Source: Candidatus Baldrarchaeota archaeon (lineage in GTDB: Archaea > Asgardarchaeota > Baldrarchaeia > Baldrarchaeales > DXJG01). From it: 32,000 nt of DNA. Below are positions 1 to 26,479 of the stretch, one piece after another. Under the pieces are notes generated by a model that saw only the letters and a program-made list of their open reading frames with translations, was not told where the DNA came from and ran no database searches. The first letter of the stretch is position 1; each line of letters opens with the position of its first letter. Position numbers and translations under genes: made by a program. Location of the stretch: the NCBI GenBank assembly GCA_019056805.1, contig DXJG01000002.1, positions 136,907 to 168,906 on the forward strand, read 5' to 3'.

Positions 1-2661
1 ATTTCCATGTGGTTTTATCGGTAAAACTGCAACATTTGGCGGTAAATGACAGAATGGTAAAACTTCAGCACTTGTCAAAACGTAATAAAGAAACTCTCTC
101 TCAATGGGGTGTCTATCAATTTCATATTCGATCTTTCCTCTCATCTTTGCTCTTCTTGATGTTCTAACCATTGGAATCTTTTCATCAATAACATCAACAA
201 ACCAGCAAGTTTGCGGAACTATCGTTGCTCCCTGGTAAAAATCTCCATAGTAGTGACTTCTAGAACTAATTGCCTCAAGTTTTACAAGTGAGATGAAAGA
301 TCTCTTCTTAACTAGGTTTAAGTAAAGTTCGCTCTCCAAAACTTTTAATTGTTTTAGTGCTTCTGATAGGCTCATAACCTTGTGTCTATCTTCTGGAAGT
401 TTTCCTTCAATAATAATTGTTGGAACTGGATAAGATTTTCCAGTTTCCTTTTTTGCTATAACAGCGCATGCTGGAACATAGAATAGTGGGGTAACTTTGC
501 AGTCAATGAACTTCTCAATTTTATACTCAACTTTAACATCTTGCCTTCTAAATTTGTCGTGTTGATCGGAATACATTATTGATTTTGGCATTACAAACCC
601 TATTGATCCTCCATCCTTTAAATATAAATCTAAACATCTAATTAGGAATAGTGTAGCCATTTCCATGTGAGTCATTAAATGTTCCTCAACAACTAATCCA
701 TATTTTTCTTTTATCAGTTTTTTGACTTTCCTTTGGTAATCTGGGTCTGCTATAAATCTGTAGGCAAGCCAAGGAGGATTCCCTACGATAAAATCAAAAT
801 CTCTGTAGTACGTTGAGACTATGTAAGTTTTGAGTATAGGTATCCAGACTGTATCAATTTCTTTCCTCACGAATTCAAGTAATTTATCATAGACACTTTT
901 AATTAAGATTCTTTCTTCCCTTGTTAGCTTATAACTCTCTAGCCTTCTTTGGAGTTCTATATTATCAAATGGAGCTTTTGCTTCTAGAAATCGTTCGAAA
1001 TCGTTCAGTAAATCTAGAGCTTTATCAAGAAGTTTCGAGGGGATTTGGAATTTCGTTCCACCAGCTTCAATTTCAACGACTTTTACGGGTTTACCCGCTA
1101 CCCATACTGTATCTTCAAGCTCCCTAGCAGTAATAATTGAGTTTGCTAAATACACTGGAATTTCTATCATTTCCTCCCCTTTATGTTCTAATAGTCTTTC
1201 AGAGGCTAATGCAATTAGATAATTTGCTCTAGCTGTAAGAACGGCCAAAGAATCTATATCAAAACCTATAACATTTGAACAGATCGTTTTCAGTAAAGTT
1301 TTTGGGCCAATTTTGTCTTTATACTTTGCCATCTTTTTAATTACTAAAGCTAAAAATGTTCCGGTTCCAGCTCCGGGATCTAAAAATTTGGTATTAATCA
1401 AATCTGTATCTTTAGTTAGTTCATTTATTATGAGTTCTGCAAGCCAGTCTGGAGTTGTGTATATTCCTAGCTTTTGTCTTACTTCTTTTCTTGGAACTAA
1501 TTCTTCATATAAAAGTTTGAAAACGTCTCTAGCCATTGAAGGCTCTTGAATTAAAGACTCTATATCATATTCCAAAAGCTTTTCAGCAATTACTCTTACA
1601 ATTTCCTCTATTTCGTCATCCCATTCATCCAGATACCATGAGAAAAATTCCCCTTCTAAAAAGTTCTTTATTTTGTAAATAGAATAAAGGTATCCGGTTT
1701 CAAGCTCTTCAATTTTCTCTTTAAGTTCATTTTCAGCAATAGCTCTTTTAACTTCTTCAAAGAAAGTTGCTATAGTCGCATTATAAAATCTTGCAGCAAC
1801 TTCAACTGATAATAACTTTATAACTAGAGCGTAGTAAGTTTGAATTGCAAAAAATAACTTTAATCCATCAATCTTTTCCATCTCCATTTTTTCAAATCCA
1901 TAATCTTCGGCGATTTTCCTTAATTCTTCACCAGAAATTGAAAAAGCTTGAGATGTGAGCCTTAACCATTCATCAAACAGTTTTTGGGTCTTTTCACTCG
2001 GATTTTCAAGTTTTTTATACAATTTCTTTACAGCTAAATGTTTCTTTACAATTAGGCTTCTATAACCAAAGTCTGATGCCAAAAGTCTTGCATCTATCTT
2101 CTTCTTATAAGCTGCAATAACCCTACCTATTATTCTCCTTAATGTTTCTGGTTTTAGCTTGTAAAATCCTACCTCTGGTTCCAGTTTGAATTCGTTCAGT
2201 TCAGGGCAATATTCAACAAAAATTACGTTGTAGCCGTCCCAGATAATTCCAGTAATTATTGGGGTAAAACCTTTCTCCTTAATCGCTTCTATATGTCTTC
2301 TAATTCCCTCTTTATTGAGAAGGCCAGGGATATAGATTTCTTTTGTTTTCTTTATTGCTTCTTCTCTTACACTTGCCTTTTCTAATTCACTCGGCTTTTT
2401 GTACTCAAATATTACTAAGCCATATAACGCATCTATTCTCCCCCAATGTTTAGCAGAGACACCAAGCCATTCCTCACTTTCAACTCTATACTCGTATCTT
2501 GGCTCTGGAACCCCTAAAGCATCCCAAACTTCTTTTCTTAAAATTCGCTCTATTCTATTCTTCAAATCCTCTTCATTGCCTTTAATGTTTTTAACTTCTT
2601 CCACTTCTTGTATTATTTTATTGCAAATATCACCCAATTTAGCCTCAAACAAACGACACAC
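1..2661 (-). CDS. Fused restriction endonuclease / N6-adenine DNA methyltransferase (type IIG/Eco57I-like), 3' end outside window
   Basis: Manual translation of the minus strand is open in the segments read from GTG 2661 (or TTG 2652, preceded by GGAAGGTG) to position 1; absent from the ORF track because it has no stop in the window. N-terminal GRIDALYGLVIFEYKKP (PD-(D/E)xK-like), GIYTTPDWLA (motif X), FLDPGAGTGTFL (motif I), FIVGNPPW (motif IV, nt ~769-792): gamma-class order. Confidence 0.9.
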   Translation of the reverse strand, partial: MCRLFEAKLGDICNKIIQEVEEVKNIKGNEEDLKNRIERILRKEVWDALGVPEPRYEYRVESEEWLGVSAKHWGRIDALYGLVIFEYKKPSELEKASVREEAIKKTKEIYIPGLLNKEGIRRHIEAIKEKGFTPIITGIIWDGYNVIFVEYCPELNEFKLEPEVGFYKLKPETLRRIIGRVIAAYKKKIDARLLASDFGYRSLIVKKHLAVKKLYKKLENPSEKTQKLFDEWLRLTSQAFSISGEELRKIAEDYGFEKMEMEKIDGLKLFFAIQTYYALVIKLLSVEVAARFYNATIATFFEEVKRAIAENELKEKIEELETGYLYSIYKIKNFLEGEFFSWYLDEWDDEIEEIVRVIAEKLLEYDIESLIQEPSMARDVFKLLYEELVPRKEVRQKLGIYTTPDWLAELIINELTKDTDLINTKFLDPGAGTGTFLALVIKKMAKYKDKIGPKTLLKTICSNVIGFDIDSLAVLTARANYLIALASERLLEHKGEEMIEIPVYLANSIITARELEDTVWVAGKPVKVVEIEAGGTKFQIPSKLLDKALDLLNDFERFLEAKAPFDNIELQRRLESYKLTREERILIKSVYDKLLEFVRKEIDTVWIPILKTYIVSTYYRDFDFIVGNPPWLAYRFIADPDYQRKVKKLIKEKYGLVVEEHLMTHMEMATLFLIRCLDLYLKDGGSIGFVMPKSIMYSDQHDKFRRQDVKVEYKIEKFIDCKVTPLFYVPACAVIAKKETGKSYPVPTIIIEGKLPEDRHKVMSLSEALKQLKVLESELYLNLVKKRSFISLVKLEAISSRSHYYGDFYQGATIVPQTCWFVDVIDEKIPMVRTSRRAKMRGKIEYEIDRHPIEREFLYYVLTSAEVLPFCHLPPNVAVLPIKPHGN
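2573..2651. repeat. 79-bp direct repeat, copy 1 (5' end of the RM gene)
   Basis: tcattgcc...agcctcaaaca matches 3393-3471 at 78/79 nt (2605 t vs 3425 a); offset 820 bp. Confidence 0.95.
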
Positions 2662-13798: not shown

Positions 13799-15325
13799 TT
13801 AGGTATATTGTTTTTCAAACTTTTTCGCTGCGTCTTCTAAATTTAATGCATGTTTTGGCTCTTTGCTTCTTCGTTTTCTAATTTTGATAAATAAGGGGAA
13901 ATTTACAGCTTCGCCTACAATTAACGCTTCGCCTACATTGAGTGTTGTAATTACATCTAGCACAGTCCTATCTATTCCTTCGCTGCTTTCACCTATGTGT
14001 TTTAAATCGTAGGGATTTGTAATACGAAGGATTATATGAGTATTGCATTGTGATAATACTGTTGTTGATAACTTCACTGGTCTTTGACTTATTAAACAAA
14101 GGGATGCGAAGAATTTTCTGCCTTCTCTAGCAATGGTTTCTATGATGCTTTTAGATATTGCGAGTTCTCTTCTTGCTTCGGGACAAAATTGGTGAGCTTC
14201 CTCCAAAATTAATACGAACGGTGGAATTTTTTCTTGTTTACGCAAGTCAAAAAGCCTTCTTGCCACGTATGAAACCAAAATTTGTTTTTTCCTTAAACTT
14301 ATGATCTCACTAAGATCAATTATTGCAGCATGTCCCGGTTTCACAATTTTATCCAAGTTTGGTGACTCCACTGGTCCAAAAAGCCCAGTTTCCTCTAAAT
14401 CATACAACCATCCAAGCAACGCTTCTTTTGTTCTTATATTCATCTTTTCATCTTGTTCTATCTCTCTAATAACATCTTGAAGAGAATAAGGAATTCCAGT
14501 TTCATACATTTTTCTTTTTAGATTTTTTAAAACTCTTCCTAACTCTCTGATTTGAATCGGTGAAATCTGTGGCTGAAATTCTCCAAACATTCTTTCACTT
14601 ATTTGAGGAACAGCTATCTGGAAGAAGGAAGTCTTAAAAACCGAAACTCTATCCGAAAAATCTACATATCCACTGCTTTCAACTTTTTCAGCAAGAGAAA
14701 CATATTCGCCATGTACATCTACAATTACAACCGCAACTCTTCCTTTTGCAGGGCTACGTAATAATAGCTCTTCAGTTAAAACAGACGCTAGATACGATTT
14801 TCCGGCTCCTGAAATTGCAAGGATAGCTACATGTTTTTGAAGTAATCTTGTAAGATTTAATCTTGCTGGTATATTATGATAACGGACTGTACCAAGCTCT
14901 ATCCCATTTTCTATATCTAGCCCCAGAAAATTTGCTAATGTATCTTGACTTGCAAGTCTAACCTTTTCTCCTGGAGACGGGGGGAAGGTAACTCTTTCCA
15001 GTTGTCCATTTATACTTATTGCAAGCGGTTTTGCTTTAGCAATAATATATTCCCATTTATCGACAGGAAAAATTGTGGTTAGCGGTTTACCACCTCTTTC
15101 ATATTCTCTAACTGCTTCGGCGTGCATAAAATATCTATTAGTTTTCATGATTTCGGTTACTTGAGCAATTAGTTTTCCTTCTTCAGTACTAACTTCAACA
15201 AACTGACCAGTTCTAACGGGTACTGATAACGATGTATTTGTGACCACAAAGTCGAATTCAAATGCACTTGGGCCACTACTGGTACATATTACTGTTCCGA
15301 CTTCTCTTTCCACCGATACCCCCAT
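13799..15325 (-). CDS. herA: HerA-family bipolar helicase/ATPase
   Basis: N-terminal HAS-barrel-like region, Walker A ISGAGKS, VDVHGEY, Walker B LILEEAH, AREGRKF, SQRP; start probably ATG 15325 (track start 15391 is an extension). Confidence 0.9.
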   Translation of the reverse strand: MGVSVEREVGTVICTSSGPSAFEFDFVVTNTSLSVPVRTGQFVEVSTEEGKLIAQVTEIMKTNRYFMHAEAVREYERGGKPLTTIFPVDKWEYIIAKAKPLAISINGQLERVTFPPSPGEKVRLASQDTLANFLGLDIENGIELGTVRYHNIPARLNLTRLLQKHVAILAISGAGKSYLASVLTEELLLRSPAKGRVAVVIVDVHGEYVSLAEKVESSGYVDFSDRVSVFKTSFFQIAVPQISERMFGEFQPQISPIQIRELGRVLKNLKRKMYETGIPYSLQDVIREIEQDEKMNIRTKEALLGWLYDLEETGLFGPVESPNLDKIVKPGHAAIIDLSEIISLRKKQILVSYVARRLFDLRKQEKIPPFVLILEEAHQFCPEARRELAISKSIIETIAREGRKFFASLCLISQRPVKLSTTVLSQCNTHIILRITNPYDLKHIGESSEGIDRTVLDVITTLNVGEALIVGEAVNFPLFIKIRKRRSKEPKHALNLEDAAKKFEKQYT

Positions 15326-15414
15326 GTTTTTAAAATTAAAACAATATAAAATTCTTTCCTCTCTGCTTTCTCGGCAAAACATTAAAAGCACTAAATATAC
15401 TATTTGATTCTAAA

Positions 15415-16575
15415 TTAAAAAGGTCTTCTATCACGTCTAAGCTTTAGTAGTGAAGGCAGGAATCCAACAGCATGAACTAAACTATCATAGATAATTTCAA
15501 GGTCAGATTCGAGGAGTCTTGCTCTTGCATCAGCCTCAATTATAACTGAAGGTGTCGCATATTCTGAGTGATAACTTGAAAGGGGATAAATTATTGAGGC
15601 CAGTCTATTTGCAAGGTTTATCGGATTATCTCTAAATGTTAAGAATTCTATACGAATAGGAATATCAAATTCTACAGTTTTGAGATAAAACACGTTAATC
15701 GGCTTGGTCCAACCTTTCTCTTCCAAATCTCTTAGAATGAGATGTTCTTGCGGCTTTTCAGAATAGGAAAACACTAATGTTCTCTCACCCACATCTAAAA
15801 ATCTAAATAAAAAATCTGAGTCTCTCATTAACTTCAATACTTGTCTATAATCAAAATTTAATAGGTTTTTTAGTTCTGAATATCTATAAATTAGATGAGG
15901 AAGTAGTCTGTTTAGGATTTGTATAAACCTTGTACTTCTGCTATCCTCAATTACACCTGCCAAGATAGTATTTGTTTCTATGGACTTTTCATACAATTTT
16001 ATATACAAATCAAGAATTTGTTCATATTTTTTAATTAAAAGTGAAGTTGAAACATGTGGTTTATCAGTAATTTGTGGAATAAGTGATCCGTTAAGAAGAA
16101 TGGCATCAACACTATATTCGTCTTGGACTTTAATAGCAACTTCCAACTCAGTTTTGAGTCTTTCTAAATTTGCATTTATTTCCGAGTTAATTTTATTTAA
16201 CGGGGTAATATTAATAATTATTTTTGGTTCAGGGAATTTATCCGGAAAATAGTCAACGTTAGGGCCTTCTTCTGATTCATACCTAAAAATAGCTGCTACT
16301 GCTCTAGTAATTATCAAATCAGCGCATTGCAATGACCGATTAAGAACACCGCCATCAATCCCAGCTACACATAAACCCCTAAGATTAGTAGGAGTTACAT
16401 TATAAGCAAGTTTATCTTCTAGTAGGTCTAATCTACCAACCTTAGGTAAAGAAGAAAAGTCTGCCTTTGTTTTTATTGATCGAAGAATTTTACTAAATAA
16501 ATCTTTATGTTCTTCAATTTTTACGAGATCTTTTACAACATTTCTCATTTGTCTTTGCAAATCAAACATTAACAT
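15415..16575 (-). CDS. nurA: NurA 5'-3' nuclease
   Basis: VAGIDGG, LLNGSL, AGVIEDSRS, YATPSVIIEADARAR; directly upstream of herA. Confidence 0.88.
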   Translation of the reverse strand: MLMFDLQRQMRNVVKDLVKIEEHKDLFSKILRSIKTKADFSSLPKVGRLDLLEDKLAYNVTPTNLRGLCVAGIDGGVLNRSLQCADLIITRAVAAIFRYESEEGPNVDYFPDKFPEPKIIINITPLNKINSEINANLERLKTELEVAIKVQDEYSVDAILLNGSLIPQITDKPHVSTSLLIKKYEQILDLYIKLYEKSIETNTILAGVIEDSRSTRFIQILNRLLPHLIYRYSELKNLLNFDYRQVLKLMRDSDFLFRFLDVGERTLVFSYSEKPQEHLILRDLEEKGWTKPINVFYLKTVEFDIPIRIEFLTFRDNPINLANRLASIIYPLSSYHSEYATPSVIIEADARARLLESDLEIIYDSLVHAVGFLPSLLKLRRDRRPF

Positions 16576-16580
16576 TTACC

Positions 16581-18265
16581 TCAGCATCTATTTCTTTTAT
16601 GCTTTAACGCTTCTCTGACGAAGGCAACATATATCGGAGACGGCCTATTAGGTCGACTCTTAAATTCAGGGTGAAACTGGACTCCTACAATCCATGCGTT
16701 ATTTGCAAGTTCTATTGCATTCACAATGTTACCCGTTTCATCATACGCTGAAATAACCAGATTTTTATTCTCTGCTTTTTCTGCATATTCTTTTATAATG
16801 TGATATCTGTGTCTAAATCTCTCCACAACTACTTCTTTTCCATAAGCTTCAAAAAGCTTAGTTCCCCTTTTTATGTAGATTTTATGGCCGCCCAACCGCA
16901 TGGTTCCACCTTTCGCTTCTATCTTACGTTGTTCTGGAAGCATATCAACTACGGGATGTGGTGTATTGGGATCTATCTCCGTGCTATTTGCATCTTTTAA
17001 TCCAAGCATTCTTCTACAAAATGCAATAAATAAAAGCTGAGCACCGAAACAAATTCCTAAAAACGGCTTTCCCTTAAGTATGGCATAGTCGGCTGTTGCA
17101 ATCATGCCCTCCACACCCCTCTTACCGAAACCAGGTGTAAGAAGAATACCGTCAAAATTATCCAACATACTTATTTTTTCCGGATTTTCTTCAAATACTT
17201 CTGTTTCAATCCATTCAAGTAACACTTTTACTCCTAGGTGTGCACCTGCATGTTTTAAAGCCTCATTTATTGAAATATAACTATCAATAATAGCTGTATA
17301 TTTGCCAGGCATTGCTATTTTTACGGTTTCGTTGTACGTTTTGAATTTTTCTACGACTTGTTTCCAGCTTTCAAGCGAAGGAGTACGATTTTGGAGATTT
17401 AAAATTCTAGATAAATATTCTCCAAGCCCCTGTTCCTCAAAAAGAAGCGGTAATTCGTAAATACAATCAGTATCAGGGTTTGAAATTACAGCTTCAACGG
17501 GTACATTACAATATAGACTAATTTTTTCTCTTATTTTTTGATCAAGAGGAATTTCAGCCCTACCAACAATAACATCAGGTTGAAGTCCCATGCCTTGGAG
17601 AACTTTAACACTATGTTGAGTAGGTTTTGTTTTGAGTTCTCTAACAGTCTTAAGGAATGGGAGAAGAGTAACATGTACTAATGCGGTATTTTCTCTAGGT
17701 TCTTCTAATCGAAATTGTCTTATAGCTTCGAGAAAAGGCATGGCTTCTATATCTCCTACAGTCCCCCCTACCTCAACAATCAATATATCTGGATTCTCTC
17801 TCTTAGCAACTTCCCTAATCCTGTTTTTTATTTCATCGGTAATATGTGGTATTATTTGAACAGTTTTACCAAGATATTCTCCAACTCTTTCACGAAGAAT
17901 AACCGATAAGTAAACCTGTCCACTAGTAATATTATTGCATGGATGAATATTTTTATCTAAAAATCTTTCATAAGTCCCAAAATCTTGATCAATTTCGGAT
18001 ATTCTAAATTTAAAACCATCAGCTGGTGTGAATTCCCAAACATCTTCAGTTACAAAAACCTCCCCATGTTCGATTGGATTAAGAGTACCTGGGTCAACAT
18101 TCAAATTCCCCCACGGCTAGAAATACTCTAGCCGCGTTAGGGGTCGATTTTTATAGCATCAACACTAAACCCTCTAAATTGGAAAAGTTTGGCAATCGAA
18201 GCAACAGTAACACCCTTACCAATACCAGACATAACTCCTCCTGTTATAAATATGTATTTTGTCAA
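16581..18265 (-). CDS. pyrG: CTP synthase, two exons (18265-18138 and 18105-16581), 550 aa after splicing
   Basis: Exon 1 from TTG 18265 (GAGGTG RBS): [42 protein letters not shown] plus UA; exon 2 U plus [18 protein letters not shown]..., [10 protein letters not shown], glutaminase FLGICFG and QFHPEF. The ORF track starts at 18104 and misses exon 1. Confidence 0.97.
18106..18137 (-). other. 32-nt bulge-helix-bulge (BHB) mRNA intron in pyrG
   Basis: Minus strand: UCGA-CCCC-UA|A-CGCGGCUAGA-GUAUU-UCUAGCCGUG-GGGG-AA|U-UUGA. 4-bp CCCC/GGGG central helix, two 3-nt bulges, 10-bp intron stem, 4-bp exon helix; splicing yields GAC CCC UAU UUG AAU (DPYLN). Confidence 0.93.
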
Positions 18266-18594: not shown

Positions 18595-18653
18595 TGGCTC
18601 ATCCAAATGCCTTTTCATCACTTTTCAGTGCCGGAAGTATTAATCATCGACCA
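18595..18653 (-). ncRNA. Box C/D guide sRNA, predicted 2'-O-methylation of LSU A1938-equivalent
   Basis: Minus strand: tggtcg-ATGATTA-atacttccggca-CTGA-aaa-GTGATGA-aaaggcatttgg-ATGA-gcca, classic C-D'-C'-D spacing with 12-nt guides; D guide is complementary to CCAAAUGCCUU. Confidence 0.88.
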
Positions 18654-24781: not shown

Positions 24782-26236
24782 TTAACCCTTGGTAACTCCC
24801 ATTGGAACCATTCTTGCTACGAGAGTAGCAATACCTAGTTTGTGACTAACTTTAACAACTCTGTCAATATCTTTATATGCACCTGGAGCTTCTTCTGCAA
24901 CTACCCTGATATTTGCAGCTCTAATTAATATTCCTCTTTGCTCCAAATCCTTTTTCACTGTAGAACCCCAATAACGTCGAGTGGCAGCAGCTCGTGATAA
25001 GTGTCGCCCTGCACCATGGGCAGTACTGCCAAAAGAGATCTTCATAGCCTGTTTTGCTCCAATTAGCAAATAACTAGCAGTACCCATACTTCCGGGAATC
25101 AGTACGGGTTGACCCATGCTTCTATAGTCAGCAGGAATATCTTTGTGTCCCGGTGGAAACGCCCTAGTAGCACCTTTTCTATGAACAAATACTTTAACCT
25201 TCTTTCCATCGACATCATGTTCCTCTAATTTCGCTATATTATGGGCTACATCATAAATCAAATGTAAATCTAAGTCTTCAGCATCTTTTCTGAATATTTT
25301 TTGAAGAGCTTCTCTTGTCCAATGAGTTATTAGTTGTCTATTTGCCCAAGCAAAATTAGCTGCGCACTGCATTGCTTGAAAATATTGTTCAGCTTCTTTG
25401 CTATTTGCTGGTGCACATGCCAATTCTCTATCTGGTAGTTTTATTCCATACTGGTGTACTGCTCTTTCCATAACTCTGAGATAATCAGAACATACCTGGT
25501 GACCAAAACCTCTAGAACCTGTATGAATCATAACAGTTACTTGTCCTTCTTCATATATACCAAGTTTCTTGGCTACTTGAGGATTATAAATCTTATCTAC
25601 ATACTGTATTTCGAGGAAATGGTTTCCACTTCCTAGAGTTCCAAGTTGTGGTCGTCCTCTTTGTTTAGCTCTTGAAGATACTACATCTGGATTCGCATTC
25701 GGCATTGCCCCTTCTTCTTCGCAATGTTTCCAATCCTCATCCCAACCATATCCCTGTTCAACAGCCCATTTTGCACCACCTTGCATTGCTTCATCCAGTT
25801 CGGCAGTTGATAGCCTTAACTTTCCAGTGCTTCCCACTCCGCTAGGAATATTTCTGAATAAAGCTTCCAGAAGTTGAGGTAAGATTTTACGTACCTCATC
25901 TTTTTTCAAATTTGTTCTTAGTAATCTTACACCACAATTAATGTCGTAACCCACTCCACCTGGTGAAATTACACCTGTTTCTAAATCACTTGCCGCTACT
26001 CCCCCTATTGGGAATCCGTATCCTTGATGTCCATCCGGAAGAACTATGCTATACTTGTAGACTCCCGGAAGACATGCAATGTTTGCTGCTTGTTCTAATG
26101 TTAAATCTGTTCTCATTTTTTCTAGTAAAAATTCATCTGCATAAATTCTCGCTGGTACACGCATGCAATTCTTGTAAGTTCGTGGTATTTCCCATACGAA
26201 TTCATCTATCTTTTCGATAGGCCCTCTATAACCCAT
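24782..26236 (-). CDS. rtcB: RNA-splicing ligase RtcB
   Basis: PDGHQGYGFPIGG, GVGYDINCGVR, GTLGSGNHFLE, HTGSRGFGH, YDVAHN, HRKGATRA, HGAGR, EEAPGAYK; start ATG 26236 after GGTGA. Confidence 0.97.
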   Translation of the reverse strand: MGYRGPIEKIDEFVWEIPRTYKNCMRVPARIYADEFLLEKMRTDLTLEQAANIACLPGVYKYSIVLPDGHQGYGFPIGGVAASDLETGVISPGGVGYDINCGVRLLRTNLKKDEVRKILPQLLEALFRNIPSGVGSTGKLRLSTAELDEAMQGGAKWAVEQGYGWDEDWKHCEEEGAMPNANPDVVSSRAKQRGRPQLGTLGSGNHFLEIQYVDKIYNPQVAKKLGIYEEGQVTVMIHTGSRGFGHQVCSDYLRVMERAVHQYGIKLPDRELACAPANSKEAEQYFQAMQCAANFAWANRQLITHWTREALQKIFRKDAEDLDLHLIYDVAHNIAKLEEHDVDGKKVKVFVHRKGATRAFPPGHKDIPADYRSMGQPVLIPGSMGTASYLLIGAKQAMKISFGSTAHGAGRHLSRAAATRRYWGSTVKKDLEQRGILIRAANIRVVAEEAPGAYKDIDRVVKVSHKLGIATLVARMVPMGVTKG

Positions 26237-26479
26237 TTTTTTCACCATGTTTAGGGAGACTTTCAAAATTTTTAAGTGTTTTTGGTACATGAGCATGAAT
26301 TTTGGTGTCTTATACCAAAATATTAGGTCCACTTACCGAGAAAATGAAGTCTTAACTAACTTGAGAACAATGTTCTACGATGTTCATAATAACTCTTTAA
26401 AGAACTTAAAATCAAGGTATCAATTTGAAGTTATTTCTTTGTATTATGACAAAAGTGATATTAGTATGACAAAGAAAGT

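Follow-up and report, generated by a model that had tools for sequence, protein, structure and literature searches.

The only CTP synthase gene of a Baldrarchaeota archaeon is split by a tRNA-type intron, one of many in its lineage and most likely removed constitutively

We analyzed a window of 32,000 nucleotides from an Asgard archaeon, Candidatus Baldrarchaeota archaeon (assembly GCA_019056805.1, contig DXJG01000002.1, positions 136,907 to 168,906 of the forward strand), in which the sole CTP synthase gene of the organism, pyrG, lies on the minus strand and is split by a 32-nt intron of the bulge-helix-bulge (BHB) type found in tRNA genes. The genome (1.92 Mb, 91% complete) contains a single copy of pyrG, and the arrangement of the gene gives good support to the view that full-length CTP synthase would be produced only after excision of the 32 nt. 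This intron, located at codon 43, is one of many in the lineage, and constitutive removal, with no sensing specific to pyrG, is in our view the most likely fate. The original prediction made from the same DNA had gone further, proposing that premature termination at the splice site is part of a possible switch that could tie CTP supply to tRNA-splicing capacity or nucleotide pools.

Between them, the two exons encode an uninterrupted CTP synthase (coordinates without a contig or locus prefix are those of the window). Exon 1 (18138 to 18265, minus strand) starts with a TTG at 18265, which is kept in the congeners and has a Shine-Dalgarno-like GAGGTG 7 nt to its 5' side. Its 128 nt comprise 42 codons plus the UA of the split Tyr43 codon, encode the nucleotide-binding loop (P-loop), and match positions 1 to 40 of the Pfam profile CTP_synth_N (E value, 9e-15). 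Exon 2 (16581 to 18105, minus strand) runs from the U of Tyr43 to a TGA at 16583 to 16581 and contains the remainder of the synthetase domain (CTP_synth_N 42 to 265; E value, 7e-89) followed by the glutamine amidotransferase domain (GATase; E value, 3e-39). The profile is continuous across the junction (1 to 40 and 42 to 265), and the spliced coding sequence amounts to 550 amino acids. As the original prediction stated, the frame of exon 1 runs into a UAA (18139 to 18137) if the transcript is left unspliced, giving a product of 42 residues. It was also right that a restart at the TTG at 18104 would lose the P-loop: the open reading frame (ORF) from this codon to the stop at 16581 matches only CTP_synth_N 42 to 265 and GATase, and the run of G residues ahead of it is just 2 to 3 nt upstream, too near to act as a Shine-Dalgarno site.

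The intron (18106 to 18137, minus strand; first base A, last bases AA) is enclosed in a complete hBHBh' motif on the minus strand (18101 to 18147). The outer helix h' (UCGA/UUGA, 18147 to 18144 with 18104 to 18101) has 4 bp, including one G-U pair; a 5' bulge, UAA (18137 to 18139), and a 3' bulge, AAU (18107 to 18105), flank a central helix H (CCCC/GGGG, 18143 to 18140 with 18111 to 18108); an inner stem of 10 bp (18136 to 18127 with 18121 to 18112) closes a loop of 5 nt, GUAUU (18126 to 18122). The 5' bulge, whose UA comes from the exon and whose A comes from the intron, is itself the in-frame stop of the unspliced transcript, as first claimed. The region folds more stably than shuffled sequences (z = −3.8). 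The unconstrained minimum free energy (MFE) structure has the same inner stem, with H shifted by one base (CCCU/GGGG) to give a 2-nt AA bulge. In a strict genome-wide scan for hBHBh' motifs, the pyrG motif passed and ranked second by energy per nucleotide among 3,527 candidates, i.e., those with inserts of up to 75 nt.

If the bulges are cut at UA|A and AA|U, the joined exons read GAC CCC UAU UUG AAU, which translates into DPYLN, the same residues as in the intron-less gene of G004, a genome of the nearest other genus. The predicted spliced junction reads GACCCCUA|UUUGAAUG, and around this junction each residue of the product, ...KIDPY|LNVDPG..., lines up with the uninterrupted pyrG product of G004. 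An alternative pair of cuts, shifted one base upstream at both sites, would generate an identical mRNA. Judging from the reading frame, cleavage would occur after the second base of each bulge, in agreement with the canonical position.

In order to put this interruption into perspective, we compared it among relatives. The intron was present at the same profile position in all four genomes of the genus and in three public metagenome contigs, and no insert was found at the codon 43 site in the other 55 Asgard genomes with pyrG, one of which is the order's sole further genome. In the relatives, the intron has 31 nt instead of the 32 nt of the window, and a single cut rule leads in both cases to the same DPY|LNVDP junction, which excludes frameshifting, a sequencing error, or a decaying pseudogene. 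Comparison of the window with its congeners revealed 196 to 216 synonymous versus 45 to 50 nonsynonymous codon differences in pyrG; for exon 1 alone, the values were 12 to 17 versus 2 to 3. Both exons are therefore under strong purifying selection. Along similar lines, the UAA of the 5' bulge was kept in 7/7 sequences of the alignment, and the stems and H' of the motif were almost invariant, while the loop differed among relatives (GUAUU, AGGUU, UUCGCC, and UUUGUC, the last two with six bases). Across the four distinct sequences, the pairing of the motif held in 96% of the cells, compared to 35 to 54% in slid registers. The middle pair of h' varied among relatives as C-G, U-A, and U-G, with A×A in two of them.

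The enzymes required for this type of splicing are encoded in the genome. Two paralogues of the splicing endonuclease EndA were detected, with alpha (184 aa) carrying the Tyr/His/Lys catalytic residues, as read from its sequence, and beta (178 aa) devoid of the His. Alpha aligned, loop included, with 155 bits to its first-ranked Protein Data Bank chain, 3P1Z_B, of a tRNA-splicing endonuclease from Aeropyrum pernix. By its sequence, the EndA of this genome is thus of the (alpha-beta) type. The (alpha-beta)2 type has been reported for Asgard and TACK archaea (PMC5829648). The genes for EndA alpha (G000:C9:197884-198129), EndA beta (G000:C9:13779-14039), and Archease (G000:C9:28295-28720) are on the same contig as pyrG. 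The RNA ligase RtcB is encoded within the window, 6.5 kb from pyrG, by a 516-aa ORF (24782 to 26332, minus strand) that matches the full length of PF01139 (profile positions 1 to 426; E value, 4e-183), and it is presumed to be the exon-joining enzyme. In the mechanism that we propose, the pyrG pre-mRNA would fold into the hBHBh' structure, half of it exon and half intron sequence, and heteromeric EndA would cut within each of the 3-nt bulges (UA|A at the 5' site, AA|U at the 3' site). RtcB together with Archease would then ligate the exons, and only at that point would the 550-aa CTP synthase be encoded; RNA that escaped splicing would give a 42-aa peptide at most.

We then looked for similar introns elsewhere in the genome by scanning, under strict and relaxed rules, for BHB motifs that leave two open frames fused once they are taken out. 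The ORF fusion filter alone was unspecific (129 strict BHB matches versus 131 to 137 at random positions), so that the candidates had to be ranked by constrained-fold energy per nucleotide; ranking by total energy favored only long inserts. Candidates were considered verified when Pfam profiles or conserved motifs were continuous across the junctions. Besides that of pyrG, eight BHB introns in six other housekeeping genes were verified this way, making a total of nine introns in seven genes. They are located in aIF5B/infB (33 nt; L121:664-696, plus strand; REAGGI|TQHIGA), in the gene of a P-loop protein (22 nt; L122:1651-1672, minus strand; MGAAGRD|FHNFN) that, judging by its motifs, is presumably cyclic-2,3-DPG-synthetase-like, in atpD (36 nt; L132:432-467, plus strand; PTR|MELL), in pcm (31 nt; L133:326-356, plus strand; PCMT profile 3 to 59 and 61 to 208), and in the gene for a POR gamma-like subunit (35 nt; L134:274-308, plus strand; POR profile 1 to 32 and 33 to 173). 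The remaining three are all in glyA (28, 26, and 29 nt; L125:1187-1214, 1098-1123, and 401-429, minus strand), where they delimit, among others, a micro-exon of 63 nt, and the SHMT profile (51 to 285 and 286 to 399) spans the third.

The nine introns share A-rich bulges, with A as the first base in 8/9 and AA as the last bases in 7/9. They sit toward the 5' ends of their genes (mean relative position of 0.18; P of about 1e-4), and all of them contain an in-frame stop codon 0 to 9 codons past the 5' cut. The 5' bias and the stops could reflect selection, be it through a race between splicing and translation or through early termination as a safeguard, or else the loss of introns from 3' ends via reverse transcription, a process that has been proposed for yeast introns. 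In the case of pyrG, the stop borrows its U and A from the start of the conserved Tyr43 codon, and its third base is the first base of the intron. A stop at this splice site is therefore to be expected, because the Tyr codon is split as UA|U and the introns begin with A in 8/9 cases, and the UAA looks incidental, a by-product of the split Tyr codon and of an A-rich bulge.

Several other candidates of the scan were rejected. One (C17:83337-83383) lies inside an RNase PH-like coding sequence, several belong to repeated elements (near C17:268 kb and C11:45 kb), and another (C11:44260-44308), upstream of a TnpB-like, transposase-looking ORF, showed no coding continuity across its junction. Outside long ORFs, we observed two BHB-like motifs with 11-bp stems (G000:C9:185819-185917, plus strand, and G000:C18:35013-35101, minus strand) that enclose near-identical inserts of about 90 to 100 nt with GTGTGAGTAGGTCTCCCCCCTCCTCCCCCT; they may be introns of noncoding RNAs or copies of a repeated element.

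Interruptions of pyrG also appeared outside the genus. Two genomes of another Asgard family (G021 and G031) have a second, independent interruption of 31 nt (L039:599-629 and L040, about 642-672) at a different site, DFGTY|ERFLG, with the Pfam profile broken at 62/71. This insert has a hairpin of 7 to 8 bp and an exon-exon pairing of 6 bp, and it appears to be BHB-like; no canonical BHB register could be fitted to it, the best one having a G×A mismatch in the central helix. A 46-aa protein from a marine sediment metagenome (P0003) is an N-terminal fragment of CTP synthase ending exactly in ...KIDPY, which may point to an interruption at or beside the same site in another lineage or may merely mark the end of a contig. 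In two genomes of genus g9 (G011 and G048, 99% complete), searches with the Pfam N-terminal family and with the exon 2 protein of the window both failed to find pyrG; it is present in sister genera of the same family.

With regard to the genomic context, pyrG is followed by nurA (15415 to 16575, minus strand; NurA, E value of 1e-16), whose ATG at 16575 is 5 nt past the TGA of pyrG (16583 to 16581), and then by herA (13799 to 15391, minus strand; DUF87/HerA), as had been noted originally. A GAGGT ahead of nurA overlaps the pyrG stop codon, which makes translational coupling of nurA to pyrG plausible. In the congeners, nurA is also the next gene after pyrG, overlapping its end in one of them, and at least 12 Asgard relatives that lack the intron, drawn from several families, likewise have a partial or complete nurA immediately after pyrG. 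The two genes were therefore linked before the intron arose, and their linkage is not tied to it. The longest herA ORF begins at GTG 15391, 23 nt past nurA; its likely start is the ATG at 15325, which gives the product length of the relatives and leaves a spacer of about 90 nt (15325 to 15414, minus strand; 89 nt in a congener). Since this spacer is A/T rich and contains a TATA-like TTTATATT (15350 to 15343), herA may have a promoter of its own. A scan for sigma-70 promoters and intrinsic terminators was uninformative, as is to be expected for an archaeon. On the other side of pyrG, several relatives have a divergent purA upstream, and in the window there is a subthreshold match to archaeal box C/D sRNA families (18597 to 18651, minus strand; sR17, 30.3 bits versus a gathering score of 36). 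No Rfam family matched the pyrG leader or the intron.

A number of observations weigh against a constitutively spliced BHB intron whose stop codon is fortuitous. The outer helix h' has only 4 bp, is missing from the MFE fold, and is broken (A×A) in two congeners. The covariation of the motif was not significant, with one two-sided compensatory change and 182 of 500 shuffles reaching the observed score, because there were too few distinct sequences (four). A search of public metagenome contigs with the spliced junction pattern, which could have revealed cDNA or intron-less strains, returned no matches. The splicing of pyrG is itself something that we infer from the motif, the colinearity of the product, its conservation, the selection on both exons, and the presence of the enzyme genes, and its constitutive character is our assumption. 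Finally, the in-frame stops of the nine introns (9/9) are enriched over those of the other two frames (8/18; Fisher P = 0.005), even when the two introns with a length divisible by 3 are excluded (P = 0.015), which hints that early termination may have been selected and that the pyrG stop is perhaps not purely incidental.

The last point leads to an alternative that is compatible with constitutive splicing, namely, that in-frame intron stops have been selected throughout the genome, so that ribosomes on unspliced pre-mRNA terminate and clear the BHB. No long aberrant protein would then be made, and the UAA in the pyrG bulge would be the extreme case; besides the frame enrichment, the clustering of the introns near gene 5' ends fits this idea. 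However, nine introns are a small sample, a stop had to come early, within L/3 + 10 codons, for a candidate to pass the detection filter, and those introns with a length that is a multiple of 3 could be detected only if they had one. Moreover, A-rich bulges, CUAG palindromes, and UAA loops yield stops by composition alone, and that of pyrG is forced by the Tyr codon. We thus regard such selection as a tentative possibility. A much less probable explanation, to which we give hardly any credit, is that the insert is not an intron at all and that pyrG is a pseudogene, an assembly error, a case of ribosomal frameshifting or hopping, or an enzyme made of two separate polypeptides. Interrupted ORFs are indeed what a gene caller would report, and a 52-aa exon 1 product (P0001) is on record as a separate protein. 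Yet the same interruption occurs in four species-level genomes and three metagenome contigs, synonymous differences far exceed nonsynonymous ones in both exons, a single frameshift rule cannot bypass both a 31-nt and a 32-nt insert, and take-off and landing codons that match each other are absent. As a polypeptide on its own, exon 2 would have neither a P-loop nor a usable Shine-Dalgarno site, the G-run being too close (2 to 3 nt) to its TTG, and the exact BHB geometry is common to the eight other inserts. We dismissed all four variants.

The regulatory switch of the original prediction, in which the spliced fraction of pyrG follows tRNA-splicing capacity or GTP and termination at the UAA is polar on nurA and herA, seems unlikely to us. 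Part of it stands: the dependence of pyrG on splicing appears real, so that CTP synthase output would require EndA and RtcB; unspliced RNA terminates at once, and nurA, 5 nt downstream, is possibly coupled to pyrG in translation. Also in its favor, the intron has been retained while synonymous sites diverged deeply, its stems being far better conserved than those sites, RtcB is encoded 6.5 kb away, and a role as a negative regulator has been proposed, and never shown, for the BHB intron of the cbf5 pre-mRNA (PMC2738675); the idea of regulation by such an intron is therefore not new. The part that found no support is conditional splicing. Eight other introns built in the same way sit in six genes of unrelated function, which serve translation, ATP synthesis, one-carbon metabolism, protein repair, and oxidoreduction, and hence nothing about the device is specific to pyrG. 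The intron is a minimal hairpin with an unconserved loop, no sensor-like RNA, and no Rfam family, and its stop is accounted for by the Tyr codon. The argument for GTP sensing is weak, since Archease gives the RtcB of Pyrococcus horikoshii dual GTP/ATP specificity (PMC3973293) and an Archease gene is present here. As for polarity, an effect of early pyrG termination on downstream genes can be imagined from the gene order, but pyrG and nurA are also neighbors in at least 12 relatives without the intron, and herA lies behind its 90-nt A/T-rich spacer. A search for the IRE1 KEN/RNase domain (PF06479) gave no match in the genome, a result that is uninformative because the control genomes were also unmatched; housekeeping EndA is the sole candidate nuclease. 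Given the variable loop, the shared build, Archease, and the Tyr codon stop, any regulation by the intron is unlikely to be specific to pyrG, and the switch, a reasonable hypothesis in itself, adds little and lacks support in the sequence.

Constitutive removal of the pyrG intron can be compared with several known systems. Crenarchaeota (Aeropyrum, Sulfolobus, and Desulfurococcales) also have a short BHB intron within a coding sequence, that of the cbf5 pre-mRNA, reportedly studied by Watanabe in 2002 and Yoshinari in 2006. Both cases involve a hetero-oligomeric EndA of broad specificity, require splicing for a full-length protein, and show a lineage-restricted distribution with gain and loss. 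The differences are the gene (pyrG), the phylum (Asgard), and the fact that the pyrG intron shares its genome with at least eight others and is known from sequence. The cbf5 intron was also treated by Yokobori in 2009 (PMC2738675), and as late as 2020, cbf5 was given as the only BHB case in a coding sequence then reported, besides the BHB in the 5' untranslated region (5'-UTR) of Haloferax volcanii HVO_1309 described in the same paper (PMC7714728). By its bulges and helices, its in-frame colinear product, and the EndA and RtcB genes of the host, the pyrG intron is a new member of the cbf5-type pre-mRNA BHB introns. With the BHB introns of archaeal tRNAs and rRNAs and the HVO_1309 5'-UTR BHB (PMC7714728), it shares the same hBHBh' geometry (3-nt bulges and a 4-bp central helix) and, as predicted, the same EndA and RtcB pathway. 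Unlike them, its substrate is the coding region of an mRNA, and half of the motif consists of codons (Asp-Pro-Tyr and Leu-Asn), so that it has to satisfy the RNA structure and the protein sequence at the same time.

Two regulated systems bear a more distant likeness. In HAC1/XBP1, IRE1 cleaves the mRNA and a tRNA ligase or RTCB joins it (PMC4282640); as in pyrG, mRNA splicing is nonspliceosomal and finished by a tRNA ligase, and the unspliced mRNA gives no active protein. It is the only established splicing switch of such chemistry, and in it a nuclease dedicated to stress sensing acts and the splicing ratio is regulated, whereas pyrG would depend on a housekeeping EndA with no known sensor or conditional behavior. 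Bacterial pyrG, as in Bacillus and Lactococcus, is controlled by CTP-sensitive reiterative transcription and attenuation. There too an RNA element close to the leader decides whether full-length pyrG mRNA is produced, but CTP is sensed directly at transcription initiation, while the archaeal element is inside the coding sequence and has no nucleotide-sensing feature. No conserved, gene-specific regulatory element was found in or around the pyrG intron, where the loop is variable and Rfam gave no match. Full-text searches of the literature returned no paper pairing CTP synthase with a BHB intron and none on BHB introns in Asgard mRNAs; a 2026 preprint deals with Asgard tRNA introns only.

An essential single-copy gene such as pyrG that cannot be expressed without tRNA-type splicing suggests that EndA and RtcB act on mRNAs in Asgard archaea. 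With at least nine introns in seven genes, biased toward 5' ends and all carrying stops, mRNA splicing would be a routine step of gene expression in this lineage. Gene calling is affected as well, since annotation turns genes of this kind into fragments or pseudogenes. A broader proposal, which we hold to be improbable, is that the tRNA-splicing machinery jointly gates a set of core genes (pyrG, glyA, infB, atpD, pcm, and that of the POR gamma subunit) through 5'-proximal introns with selected stops, by which any pre-mRNA left unspliced would be aborted immediately. If that were true, it would amount to a global, HAC1/XBP1-like posttranscriptional checkpoint in close archaeal relatives of eukaryotes, with pyrG as one target and possible polar effects on nurA. 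More generally, the presence of these introns bears on hypotheses of how introns originated close to the eukaryotic root.

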